In this document: piece after piece, positions 20,657 to 58,455 of the stretch
How the letters are laid out: every line of letters starts with the position of its first letter
How positions within the stretch are numbered: the first letter of the stretch is position 1
Sequence record: ON922918
Length of the DNA: 59,156 nucleotides
From: Escherichia phage vB_EcoM_PD328
Strand: one strand, 5' to 3'
Made by a program: the position numbers and the translations under genes
Notes under the pieces: generated by a model
The model's input: the letters and a program-made list of their open reading frames with translations, nothing else
Told to the model about the DNA's origin: nothing
The model's database searches: none

Positions 20657-21535
20657 TTATTTTTTAACTGGACGTACTGGACGCTTCAAGTCTACGCCAA
20701 CCATGGCTGCAAGACGGCCTGCTTTTTCAGGGTTTTCACGCAGAATTTTACCCTGCTCAGTAAGGTTCCAACCTTCAGCACTCCACGGGTTCTTACCAGC
20801 GACGCCAGGAGTACGGGAGCCACCAGCACCACCGCCAACGTTTCCAGGGAACCAGTGTGGCTTCTTATCCTGGATATCCTGTAACCACATTTCTGGAGTG
20901 ATACCTGGCGTTACACCCACGCCGTCGCGAGTAACAACCTGACCGTCTTCGGTGAGCTCAAACAAACGAGAACCAATCAGCTCAACGTCGTCAATAGCTT
21001 CTGTGATCACTTTAGCAGACATCGCAGCCTTGCTCAGTGCGCTCTTAACGATGCGGTTCTTCTCTTTTGTGGTCAACTCTTCTACTTGCTTCTCATAAGT
21101 AGAAAGTTTGTTTTTCAGCTCGTCACGTTCACGCTCAAGCGGAGTCAACTTGTTACGAATACGCACGTTAATGATTTGTTCCAGCTTTTCATCATCAACT
21201 TTATCCGCACGCAATTTAAGCTCTTCGTATTCAGCGTCGCGCTGTAAAAGCTCATCAATATCACGTCCGTTCAGCTTACTTAGCTTACTCTTGACTGCTT
21301 TATGATCGTTACGTTCTTTTTCAAGTGCAGATTGCAACCTGTCAATATTCTGCTTACCGCCACCTTTTACGCCAGTGAGGATCCACTTATCACCTTCTTG
21401 GGAATAATACTCACGCGCGTTTTCCGGGATTTCGTCTTCAGAATTATATTCAAGTTCCAATGCACCAAAACGAGGCATGGACTGGAAGAAGCCAGCGGAA
21501 TAAGCTACCGCTAGATGAATGTGATACTTGTTCAT
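20657..21535 (-). CDS. scaffolding protein (putative)
   Basis: Helical, charged coiled-coil protein (ERNDHKAVKSKLSKL, LERERDELKNKLSTYEKQVEEL) between portal and capsid genes; start taken at residue 10 of the track ORF. Confidence 0.5.
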   Translation of the reverse strand: MNKYHIHLAVAYSAGFFQSMPRFGALELEYNSEDEIPENAREYYSQEGDKWILTGVKGGGKQNIDRLQSALEKERNDHKAVKSKLSKLNGRDIDELLQRDAEYEELKLRADKVDDEKLEQIINVRIRNKLTPLERERDELKNKLSTYEKQVEELTTKEKNRIVKSALSKAAMSAKVITEAIDDVELIGSRLFELTEDGQVVTRDGVGVTPGITPEMWLQDIQDKKPHWFPGNVGGGAGGSRTPGVAGKNPWSAEGWNLTEQGKILRENPEKAGRLAAMVGVDLKRPVRPVKK

Positions 21536-21645
21536 AAAATTCTCCATTGTGGACCGTTCCACTAAAAAGCGCGATAGACCGTTCTACCGCGCTATAAAGA
21601 CTAATACATCATTAAGAATGAAGCAACTATTTTTTACTCAAACCT

Positions 21646-25303: not shown

Positions 25304-25383
25304 AACGTTACTCCTGTCGATTCTTGACACGAATATAAGCGGTGGATTAATTAATTGCAAGGGTTATAGTAAATGTCAATAAA

Positions 25384-29436: not shown

Positions 29437-29941
29437 ATAACCCCCTTTAACGTTAACGGAATAACTATAGCAGGATACGCAAGTTGATTAACATACGTGA
29501 TCGCAACAATTAATAACCACAGTTAGTCGTCTCGTGTGCTTTAATTCATGATGCCGCAAATCAGCTACGCATACCGGCAAACCGAATATTGTAATCGTCT
29601 CTCGAGTATTTACATACGGAACTAGCTTCATACGAACAATATAGGACAGGTGAGGTGGGGATACAAAGTGTCTAGTGACGAGATAATCTACAAACGATGA
29701 ATCCTTGGCAGAGATCTAAGAGCCGCCCCGCGGCGTTACTATAACGTCCCGTGATCGTCAGTGAGGTGATTGTTACGTCATGTGACTGTCGCGCGCTCTA
29801 TTGTAACGTTGTTTATTATTACACGCGTTATTATTTTTTATTTGATTAGTGTGCTATCTATCGCATGACTATATTATACCGTCCAGTATAATTACATCTG
29901 TTACTATCTACCTGCCCACTATGTGCTGTCTATGTATGTGC

Positions 29942-30008
29942 TACCTGGTATTTCCTGCGCGTGCTGTTACCTGGTATTTTCGACACGCTCGCGCTACCTG
30001 GTATTTCC
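29942..30008. repeat. three direct repeats of TACCTGGTATTTYC in the divergent intergenic region
   Basis: Copies at about 29942, 29968 and 29995 with 26-27 bp periodicity, each preceded by GTGCT. Confidence 0.6.
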
Positions 30009-30089
30009 GGCACACCGTCTACCGTATAGTCCCGGATGTTATTATTATGAAACACAACTAAAAAAGTTCTAAAATAATGCAGATAATAG

Positions 30090-30118
30090 TTGCATCTGAT
30101 ACCCTGCTGTCATATTAT
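30090..30118 (+). promoter_or_regulatory. sigma70-type early promoter (TTGCAT-17 bp-TATTAT)
   Basis: Near-consensus -35 and -10 hexamers with a 17-bp spacer, about 75 nt upstream of the first plus-strand gene. Confidence 0.55.
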
Positions 30119-30499: not shown

Positions 30500-30575
30500 T
30501 AGCGTGCTAATGGTTGCCCATTGTTACAGTGGGCTCCCACTAGCAATCCGCTAGATCAACATGGAGATAATCACA

Positions 30576-31055
30576 ATGGTTACTATCACCCGCGTAGCAA
30601 AAGACGCTCGCTTTTTCACCAACATGTCTAACGCTCGCCGCGCCTTAAAAAAGGTTCTGGATGTAGACACTGCGACAGCTAATAGCTTTATTCACCAGGA
30701 ACCGCACGAGGACGGTGGCCGCTACTGGTTCAGCGAAAGCGCGGTTAATAAGGCAGCTAACGATCTGGTTGAAGCTGATAAAGCGACTGTCGTGGAAGTG
30801 ACCACACAACAAGCTCCAACCGCTCCCGTTAAAAGTAAAACGCGCAGCGAAACGCGCAACGGGGTCCGCCGGCCCATTAAAGGTAAATGCGCAGACGTTT
30901 GGAACGCTCTGGATAATATGTTGCCTAATGGTGTGCCAACTATTGGTAACGTCCGTGACCTTGCGAAAGCTAATGGTTGGAATATTAATAATGCAACGAT
31001 TGAATTCTACGCATGGCGTAAATTCCACGGGCTCAATAATAAAGGGGGTAACTAA
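30576..31055 (+). CDS. hypothetical protein
   Basis: 160 aa from the second ATG (GGAGA RBS); no recognised motif. Confidence 0.4.
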   Translation: MVTITRVAKDARFFTNMSNARRALKKVLDVDTATANSFIHQEPHEDGGRYWFSESAVNKAANDLVEADKATVVEVTTQQAPTAPVKSKTRSETRNGVRRPIKGKCADVWNALDNMLPNGVPTIGNVRDLAKANGWNINNATIEFYAWRKFHGLNNKGGN

Positions 31056-32651: not shown

Positions 32652-33689
32652 CTTCTAACTGCATTATATAATCCGCGCCCTGTTGAAGTCCAACGGGGCG
32701 CTTTCGTTTTTGTACCCGCACCACCTCCCCGCGCTACCCTGCTGACCACATGTTACTCACCCATAACTCCACCATTCGCGCTCTAAGAGCGTAAACCCTT
32801 CCTCCGTATATTACCATTGACACAAATATAGTCGCCTTATACGCGCTTACAGCGATCCACTCCCTGCATCCCTGTACGCGATTTGGGGGCATTTTCACCC
32901 CTCGCTGCCACCCTTACACCGATCCAACCGCTTTATCGCGCTACGTGCCCCGTTTTCGCGGCTATTTTCGCTTTATGGGCGACCCGCTACACCGATCTCA
33001 GCCACCCAACCTCACCGAAAAGCCACCTTTCACCGAAAAATCCGGCATTTATACCATAAAATAGAATCGTTTTCGGGCTACAAAATTTCAAACTCAAAAA
33101 TCCGATTCGCTCCGAGAGTCACTTCAACAAAAATCGCTTGCAATCCAATTTTATTTTGTGTTAGACGCACGGGCACGCATTATGCGCAGGCGCCAGGCTC
33201 TGCCCTGTCTACTGACGAGCCAAATTTATAAAGTTCATAAATTCGTATATTTTCGCGTAATATACGAAATGAAAGGAGGTAAGTGCATGAAAAATAAGGT
33301 AAAAATGTGTATATGTGTGTATTTATATAAATTTTATAAAGATTTTTTGTTTTTTGAGTTGTCTACTGACGACCCTACGAGACCCCTTTATAAAATTTAT
33401 AAATTCACACGTTCCCCCCAACCCTCAAAATTTTCCCTTGTTTTTCATACACTTCGCTTCGCCGTTTCGTATATTGCTGGGTCTTTATAAATTGTGCATT
33501 TTTTCACCGATCTTTATAAATGTACAATTTCTCACCTTCAGACTGTTGTAATTTTTGCAAAAGCAAAAACTTTGCATATACAAAACACCGCAAAACATCA
33601 CAGTTGCAAATAGCAAAAACTTTGCATAAATTAAAACTTGGCAACTGAATTTCAAAATCAGTCGATTTATTATTATCAAGGGTGAGGTT
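32652..33689. repeat. about 1 kb non-coding repeat-rich region (candidate replication origin or regulatory/ncRNA locus)
   Basis: No credible ORF on either strand; GC-rich left part with repeated ACACCGATC and CACCGAAAA motifs; AT-rich right part with at least 7 copies of TTTATAAA-type palindromes and two copies of GCAAAAACTTTGCATA. Confidence 0.5.
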
Positions 33690-44927: not shown

Positions 44928-44991
44928 TCACGTTTGCATTCAGGGTAATTGGGTCCTAGTATTGCAGCCGTAACCACACAAGAGGTAACTT

Positions 44992-45738
44992 ATGCAATTT
45001 ACAACTACCGCTCAAGCAGTTCTGGACACTGGTGTTAAGATGCTTGTGTATGGTGAATCTGGTATGGGTAAGACCATGCTTACAGCAACTCTTCCAAGAC
45101 CGTTGCTGATTTCTGCGGAGTCTGGGCTTTTATCTTTAACACCGAATAACATTGCTCGTGTATTTGGTGAAAACAGACCAGATATCTGCTACGATATTCC
45201 AACCATCACGGTTGAAAATATCCAGGATGTAGAGCAGGCTTATGTTTGGGCGACTAACCCTGCAAACAATCCTGTAGGTGAAGATGGTTTACCGCGCTTT
45301 CAGTCTCTTGCGCTGGATTCACTTACTGAGATTGCTGAAAAGTGCCTTAACAATGCGAAGCGTACTGTGAAAGATCCGCGTCAGGCTTATGGGGATCTTA
45401 TTGAGAAGATGCAAACTTTAGTTCGCGCTTTTCGAGATATCCCTGGACTTAACGTGTACATGGCAGCTAAAATGTCCCGTAACAAGGACGAGTTGACAGG
45501 TATTACGTCTTACGGTCCTTCTATGCCTGGTGCAAAATTAGGTCCAGAATTACCATACTTTTTTGACGAAGTGTTCAAAATTAGTGTTGGTAAAGACCAA
45601 AATACTCAAGCAGATTTTCGTTATCTGCTGACCAGACCAGATCTGTCAAATGTATGTAAAGATCGTTCTGGTTCGTTAGAACAGATGGAATATCCACATC
45701 TTGGTGCAATCATTAACAAAATCAAAGGGGTACAATAA
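44992..45738 (+). CDS. RecA-like AAA ATPase (Sak4-like recombination protein, putative)
   Basis: 248 aa; Walker A GESGMGKT near the N-terminus; Walker B-like LALD; size typical of phage Sak4-type ATPases. Confidence 0.5.
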   Translation: MQFTTTAQAVLDTGVKMLVYGESGMGKTMLTATLPRPLLISAESGLLSLTPNNIARVFGENRPDICYDIPTITVENIQDVEQAYVWATNPANNPVGEDGLPRFQSLALDSLTEIAEKCLNNAKRTVKDPRQAYGDLIEKMQTLVRAFRDIPGLNVYMAAKMSRNKDELTGITSYGPSMPGAKLGPELPYFFDEVFKISVGKDQNTQADFRYLLTRPDLSNVCKDRSGSLEQMEYPHLGAIINKIKGVQ

Positions 45739-46664
45739 TGGCCGGTTTAGGAATGCAATTTAACGCTGGACAACACGCAGAGCGTCAACACAATAGCTTG
45801 ATGCCCGCTGGTTGGTATGTTGTTCAGATTGTAAACTCTGAAATCAAACCGACTAAAACTCCAGGCGGTGCGCGTCTGAATCTTCAGTTTAAGATTATGC
45901 AGGGTGATTTTGCTGGTCGTGTAATGTTTGGCGGTTACAACGTCAAGAACGCGAACCCTGTCGCTGTACAGATTGCAATGGAAGAACTGGCAGAGCTGTC
46001 CCGTGCTGTTAAAGTTCCAGTTTGGAACGATACCGAACAACTGCACGGTATTCCGTTCAACCTGAAAGTGAAAGTTCGTCAGCAACCTGGCTATGAGCCA
46101 AACAACGAACCTCAGATTTATCAAGCAATTGATAATATGGAAGGTGTTGTATACGCAACTAAGGCGGACATGGCTAACCTGCCTAAATCAACTCCGGCAG
46201 CGGCAGCACAGTCTCCAGCATTTGGTGGTGGTGCGTTCGGTGGTACTCAGCAGCCACAGCAGCAACCGCAGCAGGGTTTCCCTGGTGCATTTGGGCAGCA
46301 GCCGCAGCAACAGCAGCAGCAGCAGCAACCTCAGACTCAGGGGTTCCAGCAGCAAGTACAGCAACAACAGCCGCAGCAGCCGGTACACCAACAGCAGCAA
46401 CCGCAGCAGTCTGGAACAGTTGATTTTAACAGTGCGGCACAATCTCAACCGTGGGTTAATGGTGCTCAGCAGCAGACTCAGCAGCAACCTAACTGGGCAA
46501 CTCAGCAGGTACAGCCTGGAGCAGAGCAACCACAAACTCAAGCTCAGAATACTGGTACTGCTAACCATGCAGAACCTGAAGTCCAGGATGATATCGCTAA
46601 AGCAGCTCAGACCAAGACTCCACCATGGAAACGTTCCACTGAAGGCGATGACGCTGCACAGTAA
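45738..46664 (+). CDS. hypothetical protein with Gln/Pro-rich low-complexity linker (possible ssDNA-binding protein)
   Basis: Folded N-terminal domain of about 150 aa, then a Gly/Gln/Pro linker encoded by CAG/CAA repeats (46250-46420), then an acidic C-terminus; architecture resembles bacterial SSB but lacks a DIPF tip. Confidence 0.4.
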   Translation: MAGLGMQFNAGQHAERQHNSLMPAGWYVVQIVNSEIKPTKTPGGARLNLQFKIMQGDFAGRVMFGGYNVKNANPVAVQIAMEELAELSRAVKVPVWNDTEQLHGIPFNLKVKVRQQPGYEPNNEPQIYQAIDNMEGVVYATKADMANLPKSTPAAAAQSPAFGGGAFGGTQQPQQQPQQGFPGAFGQQPQQQQQQQQPQTQGFQQQVQQQQPQQPVHQQQQPQQSGTVDFNSAAQSQPWVNGAQQQTQQQPNWATQQVQPGAEQPQTQAQNTGTANHAEPEVQDDIAKAAQTKTPPWKRSTEGDDAAQ

Positions 46665-47677: not shown

Positions 47678-49681
47678 ATGTTCAAACTACGTGATTATCA
47701 GCAAGAAGCTGTAAATAGTACATTGCGCTATTTTATCAAGCATGGTGAAAAGTCAGGAAATCCTGTTATCTTGTTGCCTACAGGGACTGGTAAGTCCCTT
47801 GTAATTGCTGGTCTATTAAAGACAATTCATGATAATTGGGGTAGTACCCGCATGATGGTAATTACTCACGTAAAAGAATTGATAGACCAGAACCACGATA
47901 AGTTCAAGAAGTTATGGCCTGAAGCACCGACTGGTATTTATAGTGCTGGTATGGGTCGCAAGGATAAGAACGCAATGATAACGTTCGCAGGTATTCAGTC
48001 TGTTGCAAAACAAGCTAAATACTTTGAGGACGTTGATATTATTATAGTGGACGAATGTGACCTTATTAGTCCAAATCAGCAAACAAGTTATCAGAAGTTC
48101 TTTGCACATATCCGTGAAAAGAACCCATATCTAAAGATTATCGGTCTTACTGCTACAAGCTGGCGTCTTGGTTTTGGTTCTATTATCAAAGATGACTATG
48201 CTCCTAATGCTCTATTTGATGAAATCGTATTTAACGCGTGTACTGTAGAGTGCTTCAACTGGTTTATTGATGAAGGTTATCTGGTTCCATTAGTACCACG
48301 TAAAACAAAGAAAGAGTATGATGTAAGTGGTGTTCATACTCGAGGCGGTGAGTTCATTGAAAGTGAACTTCAGAAGGTTGTAAACGACCCTGATGTAACA
48401 CGCCATTTGTTAGATGATGCGATTAGTATTGCGGAAGAAGAGGGCAGAATGAGTTGGCTTATCTTTTGTGCTGGTGTAGACCATGCAAAAGATGTAAAAG
48501 ACTATCTCAATGAACGCGGTATTAGTTGCGAAGTTGTAACTGGTGATACACCGAAAGCCTTGCGTGACCAGTACCTCATTGACTTTAAAGCTGGTCGTTT
48601 GCAGGCAATAGCGAACAACAACGTATTGACCACAGGCTTTGACCATCCTGGTCTTGACTTGATAATTGGTATGCGCCCGTCCCAATCTTCCCGCTTATGG
48701 GTTCAGATGCTTGGACGTGGTACTCGACCTGATTATGCTGATGGTTTTGATTTGACCACAACGGAAGGTCGTTTGCAAGCTATCTCCGCTTCGCATAAAC
48801 AGAACTGTCTTGTACTAGACTATGCGGGTAATACAAGACGTCTTGGACCTATTAACGACCCTGTAATTCCTAAGCGTCCAGGGCAGAAAGGAAAGTCCGC
48901 TGCACCTGTTAAAGAATGCCCGGTATGTAAAACCTGGAACCATGCGTCGGTTCGCTATTGTGGTGGGTTAAAACCATTCGATACAAGCAGTATGTCCCAT
49001 GAAGAAATACTCTATCTTCAAGGATTAGGGTATACCATTACAAATAATAAAGCGTGTCGTGCTGGTTATTGCGGTCATGAGTTTACTTTTGAGAAGAAAC
49101 TGATGGCGAGTGCTAGTACGAAAGCTATTATCAAGAATGATTTACCAGTCACTGAGGTATTGAAAGTTGATATGGTGAGTTACTATCGTCATGAGAACAG
49201 GGGTGACCGTTCTAAGCCACCAACACTTCGTGTCGATTATCTTTGTGGCTCACAAACTATTCAACAATATATTTGTCTGTTCCATACTGGCTTTGCAGGC
49301 AAGAAAGCGCGTAACTGGTGGCGCGAGCATTGCAGCTTGGCAATCCCAGCCAACATTGACGAAGCTCTTAATGTGGTCAGCCAACTCCGTGTACCGACGC
49401 ACATCTATGTCAACTTGAAGGGTAAGTTCCCTGAAGTGTTGAATAGTTGTTATGACGGTAGTGAGTTTGGTAAGAAAGAAGCAACTAATGAACGTCCGGT
49501 TGTACAAATCGCGGCAATGAATGGCTTGTCCCAGTTTGGTGGAAGTTATACGAATAAGTTTGATGAAGACGAGCAGACTGATTCTCGTACGACAGTGTTG
49601 CATTCTACGTCTAATCAACCTATTCTTACTGGTAACGGTAAAGAGCTACCACCAGATTTTGATGACGACATTCCATTTTGA
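47678..49681 (+). CDS. SF2 DEAD/DEAH-box-type helicase with SSB-like C-terminal tail
   Basis: Walker A LPTGTGKS, motif II VDECDL, helicase C-domain motifs; protein ends ...LPPDFDDDIPF, identical to the conserved C-terminal tip of E. coli SSB. Confidence 0.7.
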   Translation: MFKLRDYQQEAVNSTLRYFIKHGEKSGNPVILLPTGTGKSLVIAGLLKTIHDNWGSTRMMVITHVKELIDQNHDKFKKLWPEAPTGIYSAGMGRKDKNAMITFAGIQSVAKQAKYFEDVDIIIVDECDLISPNQQTSYQKFFAHIREKNPYLKIIGLTATSWRLGFGSIIKDDYAPNALFDEIVFNACTVECFNWFIDEGYLVPLVPRKTKKEYDVSGVHTRGGEFIESELQKVVNDPDVTRHLLDDAISIAEEEGRMSWLIFCAGVDHAKDVKDYLNERGISCEVVTGDTPKALRDQYLIDFKAGRLQAIANNNVLTTGFDHPGLDLIIGMRPSQSSRLWVQMLGRGTRPDYADGFDLTTTEGRLQAISASHKQNCLVLDYAGNTRRLGPINDPVIPKRPGQKGKSAAPVKECPVCKTWNHASVRYCGGLKPFDTSSMSHEEILYLQGLGYTITNNKACRAGYCGHEFTFEKKLMASASTKAIIKNDLPVTEVLKVDMVSYYRHENRGDRSKPPTLRVDYLCGSQTIQQYICLFHTGFAGKKARNWWREHCSLAIPANIDEALNVVSQLRVPTHIYVNLKGKFPEVLNSCYDGSEFGKKEATNERPVVQIAAMNGLSQFGGSYTNKFDEDEQTDSRTTVLHSTSNQPILTGNGKELPPDFDDDIPF

Positions 49682-49688
49682 GGCTTAT

Positions 49689-49928
49689 ATGGCAAAAATG
49701 ACTTTTAGGAGTAATGACCATTTACCAGAAGAAGGTGAATGGAAGACTTTTAAAGAGTGGGAAGAGTTAGGCTATGGTGTAATTAAAGGTGAAAGAGCTA
49801 AACGGTTTATTCACGGTGTTGCAGTTTTTCACGAAAGTCAAGTAATCAATATTGAAGACGAGTTCGAAAAATATAAACGTGAAGAACTGCAAGGAATGTA
49901 TTGCGGACCAGAATGGTGGAAGGATTAA
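49689..49928 (+). CDS. hypothetical protein
   Basis: 79 aa from the ATG at residue 57 of the track ORF. Confidence 0.35.
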   Translation: MAKMTFRSNDHLPEEGEWKTFKEWEELGYGVIKGERAKRFIHGVAVFHESQVINIEDEFEKYKREELQGMYCGPEWWKD

Positions 49929-50651
49929 ATGTATATCTTAGTTGATTATGATCGGATGCAGGTATTAGCCAAACATCCAAACTTCCAACGTCTTCATGAG
50001 TATGGAATTCTGTGTTGTAGCGAAAGCTCTGTAGTCCTTCCGTTGGAAGTTGAAGAACTGTATAAAGAGTTTGATGATGTGCAAATGCAACTCTTGTACA
50101 TCAACTTAACGGGTAACAAGCAAGGTGCTTTATATCCAAAGAAAATGATCAGTAAGATCATTCATTATTTTTTAAATGAGATACCGGAGACAGTAATAGA
50201 TGCGGATGTGGCTGAACAAGCGGACTGGGCAATTGCTAGTAATAAAGAGGGTGAGTGCATGTACCGCGAAGGCAGCTCTGTTCCAGATTTGGGGGAGGAG
50301 CCTAATATTCAAGTACGGAATGATAGTTCATTGGAATCCACCATCATTGACGGCCCAACCGTACAAACAAACATGGGCATACAACGGGCATGGACACCGA
50401 CAAAAGAGCGGCAAGGTACTAGCACACCGGCAACCGAAAAACGTGCCGCAACGTCGCGTACAGCCGGCACTCGCGATATTATTTTCGCTATTGCTGACGA
50501 AATGTGGAAAGAAGCTGGTGAACCTCGTGACAAGAAGGAAATCCTTCAGCTTAGAAAACAAATGATGGATCGTTTAGAGGCACAAGGTGTGAAGCGTAAT
50601 ACATCAAGTAATACATTAGGGGTCTGGGTAAAAGAACGTGGCTTAAATTAA
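49929..50651 (+). CDS. hypothetical protein
   Basis: 240 aa ORF; basic C-terminal region. Confidence 0.4.
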   Translation: MYILVDYDRMQVLAKHPNFQRLHEYGILCCSESSVVLPLEVEELYKEFDDVQMQLLYINLTGNKQGALYPKKMISKIIHYFLNEIPETVIDADVAEQADWAIASNKEGECMYREGSSVPDLGEEPNIQVRNDSSLESTIIDGPTVQTNMGIQRAWTPTKERQGTSTPATEKRAATSRTAGTRDIIFAIADEMWKEAGEPRDKKEILQLRKQMMDRLEAQGVKRNTSSNTLGVWVKERGLN

Positions 50652-50663
50652 TTAACTAAAATA

Positions 50664-50692
50664 TTGCATAGTTCTTTTAGAGGGGTTATAGT
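50664..50692 (+). promoter_or_regulatory. sigma70-type promoter (TTGCAT-17 bp-TATAGT)
   Basis: Near-consensus hexamers with a 17-bp spacer, about 55 nt upstream of the 50748 gene. Confidence 0.55.
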
Positions 50693-50747
50693 GCAACCAC
50701 TTAGAACGTAGTTCACAACCAATAACCACACTGTGAGGATTTAAATC

Positions 50748-51572
50748 ATGGCTAAAGAGAAAACTCCAGAGCAACTGGAAGCAGAAGAAGCAGCAAAGAA
50801 AGCAGCAAAAGAAGCTGAAGCAAAGAAAAAACGTGAAGCTGAAGAAAAAGCAGCACGTGAATTGCAGGCTAAAGTTGATGCCGCAATGAACGAAGCCACT
50901 GCCGGTTACAATGTGATCGAAGGTGTTGTGTCCGCTGTTAAAGAACAGTTTGACACTCTGCACGAAGGTTCGTTGCTGGACGAAGTTAAAGCAGTTGAAG
51001 GCGTAGTTACCGCTCAACTGAAGACCGCTAAAGAAGGTCTGAAAGCTGTTAAAGCAGCAGCACGTAAAGTTAAAGACAACGATCAACTGAAAACTGCCGT
51101 TGCAGCATCTGAAGATCTGGTTTCCGGTGTTGAAGCCACTCTGAAAGATGTTAAAGGCCGTGTATCCGCTGCCCGCGAAGCCACTAAAGCCGCTGAAAAA
51201 GCGAAACGTGACGCTGAACGCGCTGAGAAGAAACGTCTGCAAGACGAAGAGCGCGCTCGTAAAGCAGCAGAACGCGAAGCTAAGAAAGAGCCGGAACAGA
51301 ACGGTATTCGTAAGCCTGGTGTTGGTACTCTGTGCCGTGCTGCATGGGACATCTTTGATGCTGTTACCCTGGAGCTGGGCCAGACTGCACCGATCAGCTA
51401 CGTTCTGCCGGTTGCACTGGACAAAGGCCTGAACGAAGCGAACGTCAAAGCAGAATACGCTCGCTGGAAGAAATACATGGGCATTACTGGTCGCGTATCA
51501 GTTCCAGTACCTGCTAATATTGCACAGGCGGCCGCTAACGTAGAAATTCCGTCTCAGAAATCTGCAGAGTAA
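50748..51572 (+). CDS. Lys/Ala/Glu-rich coiled-coil protein of unknown function
   Basis: 274 aa; highly charged helical N-terminal two-thirds, distinct C-terminal domain of about 90 aa; own promoter and terminator; codon usage typical of highly expressed genes. Confidence 0.45.
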   Translation: MAKEKTPEQLEAEEAAKKAAKEAEAKKKREAEEKAARELQAKVDAAMNEATAGYNVIEGVVSAVKEQFDTLHEGSLLDEVKAVEGVVTAQLKTAKEGLKAVKAAARKVKDNDQLKTAVAASEDLVSGVEATLKDVKGRVSAAREATKAAEKAKRDAERAEKKRLQDEERARKAAEREAKKEPEQNGIRKPGVGTLCRAAWDIFDAVTLELGQTAPISYVLPVALDKGLNEANVKAEYARWKKYMGITGRVSVPVPANIAQAAANVEIPSQKSAE

Positions 51573-51596
51573 TCTGTAGACACTTCGGAAACTCAG

Positions 51597-51622
51597 AAGG
51601 GGCATTTACTGCCCCTTTGTTA
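51597..51622 (+). terminator. rho-independent terminator
   Basis: AAGGGGCA-TTTAC-TGCCCCTT hairpin followed by TGTTATC. Confidence 0.5.
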
Positions 51623-51640
51623 TCTTACCCCGAGGTTCAA

Positions 51641-52405
51641 ATGTTTGCACAAGCCATTATCGCCCACCACTGGGCTCAAGCCAAATTTGGAAATCATATG
51701 AAAATTATTAATACTCAGGAACCTGAGAAGTTAGTTCGTGAACGTGGTATTCTTGACGTACATTCCATTTTTCATACCATTCAAGGCGAAGGCCCATTTT
51801 GTGGTCAACCTGCCGTATTCGTTCGATTAGCTGGTTGTAACCTGCAATGCCCAGGTTGCGATACAAACTATACGTCCAATCGTAAGAAAATGAGTCACAG
51901 TGATATTTGGCAAGAAATTGTTCGTGTCACTGGTGAAGCCAAGACTAAATTAGTTGTCATTACTGGTGGCGAACCTTTCCGTCAACCTGAAGTTGCTAAT
52001 TTTATCAACTACCTTATTGATATGAAAGGATATCGTGTGCAGGTTGAAACTAACGGAACTATGCCTATCCCGCGTGAACTCAACTATAACTGTGTGGTAG
52101 TATGTAGTCCTAAGGCAGCAAAGATTCACCCTAGCGTTTCCGCTCGAGCAAATGCTTTCAAATATGTAATGAAAAGCGGAAACGTCAACGAGGAAGATGG
52201 ATTACCGTTGCAGGCACTGGATCACCGTGCAACACCATTTATCGCACGTCCGCCTGTACACTTTAAAGGTAATATTTATCTTCAGCCTATGGATGAACAG
52301 GACGACGATGCTAATAAAGCAAACGCTCAAGCTGTCGTTAAATACGCAATGAAACATAATTATATCGTGCAATTGCAAGTTCATAAGTATTTAGGGGTTG
52401 AGTGA
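51641..52405 (+). CDS. queE: 7-carboxy-7-deazaguanine synthase (QueE, radical SAM)
   Basis: N-terminal HTIQGEGPFCGQPAVFVRLAGCNLQCPGCDT (QueE-type cysteine cluster) and VVITGGEPF; start taken at the ATG at residue 9 of the track ORF. Confidence 0.75.
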   Translation: MFAQAIIAHHWAQAKFGNHMKIINTQEPEKLVRERGILDVHSIFHTIQGEGPFCGQPAVFVRLAGCNLQCPGCDTNYTSNRKKMSHSDIWQEIVRVTGEAKTKLVVITGGEPFRQPEVANFINYLIDMKGYRVQVETNGTMPIPRELNYNCVVVCSPKAAKIHPSVSARANAFKYVMKSGNVNEEDGLPLQALDHRATPFIARPPVHFKGNIYLQPMDEQDDDANKANAQAVVKYAMKHNYIVQLQVHKYLGVE

Positions 52406-56500: not shown

Positions 56501-57454
56501 ATGCACAGAGAAGACATCAACTATACCTTTCAGATTTATATGGCTGCCGTGTATACGAACAGCTATAAACCGGGAATGAACCGCTATGTTAAACTCAACG
56601 AACAAGAAAAACGTGTTGTCGAAAATATTCCAAACATTCTTGAATCCTGGCACTACGTTGGAAAGCAATCATATGTTGATGCCATGCGTGCCGATGGGGC
56701 CAAGATATTCCTCGACTCCGGAGCGTTCTCAGCTTACACTTTGGGAGTTACGTTATCAGTTAAAGAATACTGCGATTATATCCAACGAAACATAGATATC
56801 ATTCGTGTAGAGGATGGTTCACTTATGGCTTCTGTACTCGATGGTATCGGAGATCCACTTCAAACGTGGCGCAACCAGGAAGAGATGGAAGCCAGGGGTG
56901 TAAGACCTTTACCATGCTTCCACGCGGGTGAACCTTTTGAATACCTGGACCATTATGTGCGAAATTATGAATACATCACTCTTGGTGGTCTTGTTGGAGC
57001 GAGTACACAACAACTCCAGGTATGGTTGGACAGGGTATGGGATAAACACCTTGTGGACGGTAGTGGGCGCGCGAAGATTAAAGTTCACGGATTTGGTATT
57101 ACGTCCCGTCCACTTATGGAGCGTTACCCGTGGTACTCTTGTGACTCATCCTCCTGGATCCAATCTGCAGCGTTCGGTGCTATTGAAACGCCTAAATGGG
57201 GGCCAATGCAGGTATCAGAAAAGTCTCCGTCACGTCACTATCAAGGGCAGCATATTTGTAACCTTTCAGAAATAGAACAGAATAACGTTCTACGCTACTT
57301 AGAGGAGTCAGGTTTCACATACGAGCGACTTTCAACGATATACGAATCACGCGCTGCATATAATTTATGGGCGTATGGTGTGGTCAACGCTATGATTCTT
57401 GCTAACCACAATGGGAAGTTCAACGAACGTCTCCAGGATTTATTTGACGAGTAA
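56501..57454 (+). CDS. dpdA: DpdA-like 7-deazaguanine DNA transglycosylase (TGT superfamily)
   Basis: TGT-fold-like motifs IFLDSGAFSA and VHGFG; immediately downstream of the preQ0 biosynthesis genes. Confidence 0.6.
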   Translation: MHREDINYTFQIYMAAVYTNSYKPGMNRYVKLNEQEKRVVENIPNILESWHYVGKQSYVDAMRADGAKIFLDSGAFSAYTLGVTLSVKEYCDYIQRNIDIIRVEDGSLMASVLDGIGDPLQTWRNQEEMEARGVRPLPCFHAGEPFEYLDHYVRNYEYITLGGLVGASTQQLQVWLDRVWDKHLVDGSGRAKIKVHGFGITSRPLMERYPWYSCDSSSWIQSAAFGAIETPKWGPMQVSEKSPSRHYQGQHICNLSEIEQNNVLRYLEESGFTYERLSTIYESRAAYNLWAYGVVNAMILANHNGKFNERLQDLFDE

Positions 57455-57462
57455 GGTTACTT

Positions 57463-58455
57463 ATGGATTTACTTGATGCTTTAAAGTTTGTTCAGGGTTC
57501 TGTAGCTAAGAAAGAACTCCAGGAAGGTTTAACTCACTTCCGTATTGTTGATGGTACTGTTCGCGGGTTCAACGGAACTATTTCATTGTGTAGCCCAGTA
57601 CCTTTGAACATTGACTGTACACCGAAAGCTGAACCAATGCTCAAGGCTATTGCAGCATGTGACGAAGCTGTACAGATGACAATGTTAGCGAACGGTAAGT
57701 TGAGCATTAAGTCTGGTGGCTTTAAGGTTAGTGTAGATACTCTTCAGAAACCAACTGCACACGTAGAGCCAGAAGGAACGATTCACGAAATAGACGGTCA
57801 GCTTTTTCTTAACGGTTTAAGCCGCGTAACGCCGTTTATAAGCGACGATGCTTCCCGCCCGTGGTCTTGTGGCGTGCTGGTAAAACAGGGCAGCATGTAC
57901 GCGACCAACAACGCTAGTATTATACAATATTGGTTCGGTGCTGTGTTCCCTGTTGATTGTGTTGTACCACGTATGGCCATCAAAGAATTATTGCGCATTA
58001 AAAAGCCACCAGTAAGAATTCAATGTACAGATACCAGTATGACATTTCACTACGAAGACGGTTGCTGGTTGCGTACCCAATTGCTGGAATTAAAGTGGCC
58101 CAACATTGACAAGATAATTGAGCGTACAGAAAAGGGGTCTGACGTCTATACGCTTGATACTGAACTTTTTAACTGCTTAGAGAAAATAAAACCGTTCTGT
58201 GAACGTGATGGGCGTATTTATATGGAAAATGGCGTCGTGCGTACCCATTACAACGAGCTGGACGGTGCTAGTGCAATGTTCCGTGAATCCAAGTCAATTG
58301 GCGTGTATAATATAGATCTTATTATGCAGTTGAAAGGACTTGCAACGGATTGGGACGCTTCTCGTTTCAATGAAAAGGACGAAAGGGGTCTTTCAACTCC
58401 TATTATTTTTTATGGTGAAAATCTACGTGGGGTAATTGTAGGATTTCGTCTATGA
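57463..58455 (+). CDS. DNA polymerase sliding clamp, beta-clamp (DnaN)-like (putative)
   Basis: 330 aa; pattern similarity to bacterial beta clamp over three repeated domains; directly upstream of, and overlapping by 4 nt, the DNA polymerase gene. Confidence 0.45.
   Translation: MDLLDALKFVQGSVAKKELQEGLTHFRIVDGTVRGFNGTISLCSPVPLNIDCTPKAEPMLKAIAACDEAVQMTMLANGKLSIKSGGFKVSVDTLQKPTAHVEPEGTIHEIDGQLFLNGLSRVTPFISDDASRPWSCGVLVKQGSMYATNNASIIQYWFGAVFPVDCVVPRMAIKELLRIKKPPVRIQCTDTSMTFHYEDGCWLRTQLLELKWPNIDKIIERTEKGSDVYTLDTELFNCLEKIKPFCERDGRIYMENGVVRTHYNELDGASAMFRESKSIGVYNIDLIMQLKGLATDWDASRFNEKDERGLSTPIIFYGENLRGVIVGFRL

Follow-up and report, generated by a model that had tools for sequence, protein, structure and literature searches.

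What does a bacteriophage do with a highly charged helical protein whose gene stands between its helicase gene and its genes for 7-deazaguanine DNA modification? We address this question for one gene of Escherichia phage vB_EcoM_PD328 (sequence record ON922918), analyzed as a stretch of 59,156 nucleotides that we call the window. A first-pass annotation, made from the letters of the window alone, had described the locus as a stand-alone cassette with a strong promoter and a terminator, encoding an abundant Lys/Ala/Glu-rich coiled-coil protein that could bind DNA or organize the nucleoid, reside inside the virion, or take over the host. We tentatively propose, with somewhat less than even confidence, that the product of the gene is an abundant architectural protein that binds DNA, stays outside the virion and belongs to the replication and DNA-modification module of 9g-like phages, a reading built on sequence comparison and structural modelling. 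In its favour are the conserved promoter and terminator, a codon bias second only to that of the capsid gene, a C-terminal domain that resembles a helix-turn-helix (HTH) and carries nearly invariant basic residues, an architecture of helix plus domain common to most of the family, and a constant place among replication genes. Judging by sequence identity, the window is a 9g-like (Nonagvirus) genome: the 1.5 kb around the gene are 96-98% identical to the Nonagvirus (Queuovirinae) phages SE1, whose host genus is Salmonella, and SP8, BRET, JenP2, JenK1, ChristophMerian, FritzHoffmann and 9g, which are Escherichia phages. The encoded protein is 98-99.6% identical to its counterparts in SE1, BRET and JenP2 and 96% identical to that of 9g, and it is annotated as a hypothetical protein in all the Nonagvirus relatives matched.

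Expression signals and codon usage

The promoter hexamers, the open reading frame and the hairpin terminator all lie exactly where the first-pass annotation had placed them (Table 1). The putative promoter, which follows directly on an A/T-rich stretch (50643-50663), had also been called near-consensus, and this is overstated, because only 8 of its 12 positions agree with the sigma-70 consensus (3 of 6 in the -35 and 5 of 6 in the -10 hexamer) and because a consensus promoter scanner did not list the site. The same scanner found no excess of promoter-like sites between 48 and 54 kb, with 15 detected against 12.7 expected from shuffled sequence. What speaks for the promoter is its conservation. 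The comparison drew on 79 related IMG/VR loci, in every one of which the orthologous gene was located. The pattern TTGCNN-17-TANNNT, with its -10 end 37-64 nucleotides 5' of the ATG, is present in 35 of 63 non-identical homologous upstream regions, compared with 0.7% per 75-nucleotide window in the control, a contrast that ignores the kinship among the related loci from which these regions come. In two Klebsiella-phage-like loci (L015 and L016) both hexamers and the following GCAACCAC are conserved and the spacer is changed. Because the same element is kept at the same position in diverged relatives, we regard it as a credible predicted promoter, although its match to the consensus is an ordinary one.

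Related elements recur elsewhere in the window, where TTGCAT-17-TATNNT, allowing at most one mismatch, occurs at 16 sites, against 6.7 ± 2.6 in shuffled sequences. The promoter of the gene and the other intergenic sites suggest that TTGCAT is the phage-typical -35 hexamer, and the whole element resembles a host-type promoter in a version peculiar to the phage. Just upstream of the early promoter-like site, in the non-coding sequence between the divergent early and late arms (29940-30011), there are three direct repeats of a 19-nucleotide unit, GCTACCTGGTATTTCCTGC, at spacings of 26 and 27 nucleotides. They may serve as binding sites of an operator or origin type, and phage MMDA13 is reported to have a similar repeat of 12 bp in four copies (PMC7472734).

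The codon usage of the gene is extreme in that its fraction of E. coli optimal codons (0.81) is the highest, and its fraction of rare codons (0.007) the lowest, of the 77 genes in the window. Since an abundance of Ala, Glu and Lys inflates the optimal-codon measure, we corrected for amino-acid composition, after which the gene ranks second of the 77 (z = 6.9), behind the major capsid gene (9.6) and followed at some distance by genes such as those for the tail tube (4.65) and SSB (4.56). Hence the abundant expression that the first-pass annotation had suggested is well founded as a prediction from codon usage, by which the protein would be among the most abundant of 9g-like phages. A literature search returned no expression data and no virion proteomics for any Nonagvirus.

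On the 3' side, the predicted terminator hairpin has a fold energy of -16 kcal/mol (z = -2.3), and the record of phage SP8 annotates the same hairpin as a terminator. Of 62 diverged loci, 22 have a terminator-like hairpin after the orthologue, as opposed to 1.4% of control windows, and the stem sequences differ. By these signals the gene is a single-gene unit with its own promoter and intrinsic terminator, a layout conserved in distant relatives. The cassette is nevertheless not completely closed: there is no terminator between the upstream open reading frame (stop at 50651) and the promoter, so that read-through from upstream is possible and the 5' side is not fully insulated. A search of Rfam with positions 50500-51800 returned no RNA family. 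The SSB gene (45738-46664, plus strand; PHROG 6015; z = 4.6) has a parallel layout, in which the gene of an abundant-type protein is followed by a terminator, annotated as such in SP8.

A helical protein with a recurrent C-terminal domain

The product of the gene (about 29.5 kDa, isoelectric point 8.7) consists of 19.7% Ala, 12.8% Glu and 12.8% Lys. Alignment of its homologues reveals three conserved pieces, namely an N-terminal peptide, a Lys/Ala/Glu-rich helix of highly variable length, and the C-terminal domain. An AlphaFold2 model based on a 121-sequence alignment (mean predicted local distance difference test score, pLDDT, 90.6) has helices at residues 7-68, 77-107 and 112-178, a beta-hairpin at 183-188 and short helices at 195-210, 216-225 and 230-243. 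Alignment and model thus agree with the earlier description of a charged helical N-terminal region and a separate C-terminal domain. Within the N-terminal peptide the motif (E)KTPEQ(I/L)AAE recurs in distant homologues, and E8 and A12 are almost invariant in alignments of 24 and of 121 sequences. Residues from about 45 to 150, which form the bundle of the model, are an insertion restricted to enterobacterial lineages; short homologues do without it, and most homologues have 150-200 residues. The coiled-coil label needs correction, since the protein is indeed Lys/Ala/Glu-rich, charged and helical, but its helical part is predicted to fold as an intramolecular three-helix bundle and is not an established coiled coil. 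A Foldseek search of the PDB with the full-length model was uninformative, returning only generic or designed three-helix bundles (E of at least 0.07).

In the alignment of the C-terminal domain, P182, N185, P190, W200, D204, Y237, A238, W240 and G248 are invariant, and E183, Q184, G186, R188, C196, G211, I216, G227, L228, N229, N232, E236, R239, K242, G245, R249 and P253 are nearly so, the basic residues among them being R188, R239, K242 and R249. The usual HTH pattern has a glycine in the turn, a capping N or S, and then T or N and V or I. The second helix, turn and third helix of the domain read A-x3-G-L-N-x2-N-V-x-x-E-Y-A-R-W-K-K, which fits such a pattern, A-x3-G-(L/I/V)-(N/S)-x2-(T/N)-(V/I), as read by eye from the alignment and with no statistics. 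The domain is modelled with high confidence, and Foldseek finds likeness to winged-helix and HTH folds (RecX, MCM, RPA32, Z-alpha, BrxR/CapW, ArsR and Fur); from the model, the domain looks HTH-like or winged-helix-like.

A profile of the domain, searched against 1.84 billion proteins, retrieved 1832 cluster representatives at E <= 1e-3 and 805 at E <= 1e-10. Among the 146 newly returned representatives in the best 150 profile matches, the domain is C-terminal in 120 and present as a single copy in 140, a few proteins having two or three tandem copies, and in 113 the 50 residues preceding it are at least 70% K/A/E/Q/R. The window protein has the typical architecture of the family. Over its full length (residues 1-274 on positions 15-273 of the 273-position profile) it matches PHROG 11298, which, like PHROGs 18634 and 21588 that accompany it, has no assigned function (E 9.2e-130). 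The best Pfam match of the protein is DUF948, far below significance (E = 1; 10.1 bits against a cut-off of 37.2), none of 28 domain sequences matches a Pfam family, and NCBIfam gave nothing significant. PDB sequence searches with the protein and the domain profile gave chance matches only (complexin and ribosomal protein eS26, E about 0.1), and a fold search of BFVD returned only uncharacterised family members. The domain is therefore new in the sense that neither Pfam nor NCBIfam nor the PDB has an entry for it, in a family already catalogued as PHROG 11298, and none of the papers searched describes the domain, its paralogues or the expression signals of the gene.

Two other proteins of the window end in copies of the domain (Table 1). 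In the second early gene the copy is readily detected (tblastn E 2.6e-13; hidden Markov models of the target type and the upstream type, E 1.6e-10 and 1.9e-6; shared PHROG matches). In the upstream neighbour the homology is visible only when family is compared with family: a profile of 58 upstream-gene C-termini aligns with the domain profile in hhalign at 95.4% probability (E 1.7e-8), and a single-sequence profile comparison is weak (E 0.07) but in the same register, whereas direct BLASTP between the two proteins gives no match. A homologue of the upstream gene adjoins the target gene in all 79 IMG/VR loci, and in PaMx25, Baskent_P4_1, VPv64, RHEph04 and many IMG/VR loci the helicase gene is directly followed by two or three neighbouring genes whose products end in the domain. 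From these comparisons, the domain appears as a module shared by proteins with different N-terminal parts. Three apparent fusions of the upstream and target proteins (P0141, P0168 and P0190) are probably read-through or frameshifted gene calls, because the Met of the downstream gene and residues resembling its leader are retained at the junctions, and we did not use them as evidence of fusion.

Phage distribution and gene neighbourhood

In a tblastn search of 50,697 phage records, 149 match the family, with hosts that include Escherichia, Pseudomonas, Vibrio, Rhizobium, Klebsiella, Providencia, Stenotrophomonas, Pantoea, Sphingomonas, Synechococcus and others. Only 7 loci came from scanning 185,579 genomes of bacteria and archaea; those on contigs long enough to judge look like phage contigs, and no prophage or chromosomal context came to light. 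The family thus seems to be confined to virulent 9g-like (Queuovirinae-type) phages. All 79 IMG/VR loci share one order, consisting of helicase, in some a domain gene, the upstream-gene homologue, the target, in some QueE, then QueC, QueD, FolE, DpdA and the processivity factor; the target gene keeps its place among the replication genes, after the helicase and before queE to dpdA, processivity factor and polymerase. Departures from this order also occur. Contig L088 is without preQ0 genes and carries a triple-domain protein after the helicase and before a DpdA homologue; in Synechococcus phage Yong-L2-223 (OM868081.1, 8047-9294; locus L103) the pair of domain genes lies after DNA polymerase I and not between helicase and queE, and appears to have moved as a unit; and five small genes lie between the target homologue and QueE in Rhizobium phage RHEph04. 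DpdA is present in every domain-bearing phage examined, and among the 149 matching phage records no family member falls in other DpdA-carrying lineages. Because all domain-bearing phages form one syntenic supergroup, and all have DpdA, a functional link to DNA modification is inseparable from shared ancestry. The target protein itself, searched against Pfam and PHROG, has no match to the enzyme families of the 7-deazaguanine pathway (FolE, QueD, QueE, QueC and DpdA).

One record stands apart. Vibrio phage V07 (MT135025.1, 279382-289588; locus L091), a T4-like Schizotequatrovirus by classification whose 349-kb record bears the flag UNVERIFIED_ORG, carries a domain gene. By gene layout alone, with all its genes annotated as hypothetical, the locus resembles the helicase, domain-gene and que module of Queuovirinae, and the record may be a chimeric assembly.

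In the window, the target gene lies on the rightward arm, which holds early and DNA-metabolism genes. It is preceded by genes for a Cas4-type exonuclease, the helicase (47678-49681), a 79-residue open reading frame and the 240-residue upstream neighbour, and is followed by QueE, a 250-residue open reading frame, Gat-QueC, QueD, FolE, DpdA (56501-57454) and a polymerase processivity factor (57463-58455); the five modification genes were identified separately. The 79-residue open reading frame (49689-49928, plus strand) has a borderline Pfam match to the N-terminal, single-stranded-DNA-binding domain of ArdC, an anti-restriction factor (E 2.7e-4; 21.6 bits against a cut-off of 22.6). The C-terminus of the helicase (49658-49681) reads PPDFDDDIPF, which corresponds to the C-terminal tail of E. 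coli SSB, MDFDDDIPF, on which SSB-interacting proteins dock, and the helicase tail may mimic the SSB tail and so recruit host or phage partners.

Table 1. Coordinates of the target gene, its signals and protein parts, and related features of the window
Feature	Position	Strand	Details
Predicted sigma-70-type promoter	50664-50692	+	-35 TTGCAT (50664-50669), 17-nucleotide spacer, -10 TATAGT (50687-50692)
Shine-Dalgarno sequence GAGGA	50735-50739	+	8 nucleotides 5' of ATG; AGGA/GGAG at the same place in aligned relatives
Target coding sequence	50748-51572	+	274 residues, ATG start; 9g gp09 (YP_009032332.1), PHROG 11298
Conserved N-terminal peptide	50754-50795	+	Residues 3-16, KEKTPEQLEAEEAA
Helical region	50766-51281	+	Residues 7-178; Lys/Ala/Glu-rich ends flank predicted three-helix bundle
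C-terminal conserved domain	51288-51497	+	Residues 181-250; beta-hairpin PEQNGIRKP, three helices, then G-x-x-G-R
Predicted intrinsic terminator	51597-51626	+	Hairpin 51597-51617: stem AAGGGGCA/TGCCCCTT, loop TTTAC; tail TGTTATCTT
Upstream neighbour	49929-50651	+	240 residues, 9g gp10; C-terminal ~80 residues are a divergent domain copy
Second early gene	30561-31055	+	164 residues, PHROG 17772; domain copy at C-terminus, residues ~87-161
Early promoter-like site, TTGCAT-17-TATTAT	30090-30118	+	5' of first early gene
Promoter-like site, TTGCAT/TTGCAA-17-TAnnnT	44934-44962	+	5' of 44992
Promoter-like site, TTGCAT/TTGCAA-17-TAnnnT	33604-33632	+	Intergenic, oriented toward downstream operon
Promoter-like site, TTGCAT/TTGCAA-17-TAnnnT	25332-25360	-	5' of small terminase gene
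Promoter-like site, TTGCAT/TTGCAA-17-TAnnnT	29638-29666	-	Start of late arm

Proposed DNA binding and its alternatives

Of the three functions offered by the first-pass annotation, DNA binding or nucleoid association is the one best supported, through the HTH-like or winged-helix-like fold of the domain and its sequence pattern, and it is the one that we build into our proposal; the evidence weighs neither for nor against a host-takeover role. The protein would be produced abundantly, beginning in the early or middle phase of infection, and its domain would bind double-stranded DNA by way of the basic hairpin (RRPKP), the third helix (EYARWRKF) and the G-R that follows. Such binding would show little preference for sequence, given that the EYARW(R/K)K helix and the basic hairpin hardly change between phages whose hosts and promoters differ greatly. 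The rod or bundle of charged helix would space the protein or let it oligomerise, and the conserved N-terminal peptide would recruit a partner. Its presence behind different N-terminal parts in two further window proteins would make the domain a common targeting device, directing several phage proteins to one and the same ligand. The terminator probably passes only part of the transcription into queE-queC-queD-folE-dpdA, so that this protein would greatly outnumber the enzymes. Several observations weigh against our proposal. Codon bias predicts the level of expression and does not measure it; the domain is only mildly basic (isoelectric point 8.2) and has an invariant acidic residue, D204; its conserved putative recognition surface would fit a protein partner equally well; and hydrophobic residues at classical heptad positions are few in the helical region, which makes its oligomerisation conjectural.

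Known proteins provide partial parallels. The target protein, predicted to be made in very large amounts from an early or middle gene, outside the virion and equipped with a small DNA-binding-type domain, would in function resemble phi29 p6, SPO1 TF1, T5 gpD5 and T4 MotB, abundant phage proteins that bind double-stranded DNA; no homology to them was found. The DNA of SPO1 and T4 is hypermodified, as is that of the target's phage. H-NS, MvaT, Lsr2 and Rok have the same order of parts, with an N-terminal helical part, a linker and a small C-terminal DNA-binding-type domain, and the G-R after the last helix of the target loosely recalls the Q/R-G-R minor-groove hook of the H-NS type. H-NS-type proteins have an N-terminal coiled coil that oligomerises; long helices are predicted for the target as well, but as an intramolecular three-helix bundle. 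The target family occurs in virulent phages and not in bacterial chromosomes. The DNA-binding domains of H-NS, Lsr2, MvaT and Rok have no PDB sequence match or significant structural match with the target, the winged helix of a phage Rok being a weak, non-significant Foldseek match (rank 38, E 2.5). As modelled, the target domain resembles RecX repeats, the C-terminal winged helices of MCM and RPA32, Z-alpha and BrxR/CapW in its three-helix core with an HTH-like turn, and RecX also shows the tandem repetition seen in some members of the target family.

The domain could instead dock onto a protein hub, such as the processivity factor, helicase, SSB, DpdA or RNA polymerase, so that the paralogues would be adaptors and the target an accessory factor of the replisome or of transcription. 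We consider this possible though doubtful. Several of the best structural matches are winged helices that bind proteins (RPA32C, Stn1, the WHB of cullin and APC2, and the MCM C-terminus), conservation of the domain surface is extreme even between phages with very dissimilar hosts, a single genome has the domain attached to three different N-terminal parts, and domain genes stay paired even when relocated, as after PolA in Yong-L2-223; a capsid-like codon bias, however, would be unusual for an accessory factor of a catalytic complex, and the HTH signature and conserved basic residues fit nucleic-acid binding. It is unlikely, in our estimate, that the target serves the 7-deazaguanine system as an accessory or reader, recognizing DNA that contains dG+ or dPreQ0 or helping DpdA to act on DNA. 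Such a role would explain why the gene stands directly before queE, in the window and likewise in the 79 IMG/VR loci, and DpdA accompanies the domain throughout the phages examined, including L088, where preQ0 genes are missing and DpdA lies beside the triple-domain protein. Yet co-occurrence within one syntenic supergroup may reflect nothing but shared ancestry, other DpdA lineages among the 149 records have no family member, the domain genes are not next to queE in Yong-L2-223, and in RHEph04 five genes intervene. Moreover, Hutinet et al. reportedly found in 2019 that 9g dpdA, expressed with gat-queC in E. coli, is enough to modify DNA. A wider version of the same thought, which we hold to be quite unlikely, is that the three paralogues read 7-deazaguanine-modified DNA or form a DNA-targeting module coupled to DpdA, telling phage DNA from host DNA, with the rod-bearing member coating or organizing the modified genome; SPO1 TF1, which prefers hydroxymethyluracil DNA, offers an analogy.

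Some GenBank records name homologues as a transcriptional activator or FtrA domain-containing protein (in Vid5, CAjan, SD04, CSP1, EC151, AL-2 and R7M), and the domain is HTH-like, both of which would suit a sequence-specific activator. We find this identity improbable, given that neither AraC/FtrA (HTH_18, DJ-1/PfpI) nor any other regulator family was found in Pfam or NCBIfam for the target or its family members, that the recognition helix is almost invariant across phages with different promoters and hosts, and that so high a codon bias is atypical of a regulator. Across the records of CAjan, Vid5, SD04, CSP1, EC151, Greed and CSP1C, homologues go variously by this name, by plectin 1 or by outer capsid protein; none of the names is supported by a family search, and they probably stem from low-complexity Lys/Ala/Glu matches. 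A role as an internal virion, decoration or scaffolding protein, the first of which the first-pass annotation had also offered, is highly improbable. The capsid-like codon bias would suit it, as would the elongated helical shape with its small helical domain at the C-terminus, similar to P22 gp8; but scaffolds like P22 gp8 sit between the portal and capsid genes, where the window already has a scaffolding gene (20657-21547; PHROG 206, head scaffolding protein), and the target does not, being in the replication and DNA-modification module of the early arm, about 30 kb away from the head genes, which are on the other strand. Copies of the domain are also found at the ends of an early protein and a helicase-adjacent protein. 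Mass spectrometry of R7M virions identified 14 proteins (13 predicted structural proteins and ORF28 of the head-tail module), and that of Vid5 virions 11; both lists consist of morphogenesis-module proteins and a few others, and neither includes the homologue (PMC8265664, PMC6266253). Ksap1, a name from an Avs2-trigger paper that mentions Seuratvirus, was also considered and set aside, because it is a protein of 74 residues from Dhillonvirus, and what Avs2 senses in Queuovirinae is the terminase.

The target is a core gene in a large group of virulent phages that are used in studies of phage-host interaction and defence, including those of the BASEL collection, and its domain is noteworthy for having more than 1800 representative sequences and three copies per genome while standing outside Pfam, NCBIfam and the PDB. 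The conserved layout of a strong promoter and a leaky terminator ahead of the que genes suggests a means by which different expression levels may be set within one direction of transcription. Should the protein prove to read the modification or partner DpdA, 7-deazaguanine DNA would have its first accessory factor of this kind. If, as we propose, it coats or organizes DNA, the few histone-like proteins of phages would gain a member with a new fold, and there would be a handle on the organization of replication and the switch to late transcription in phages with hypermodified DNA.

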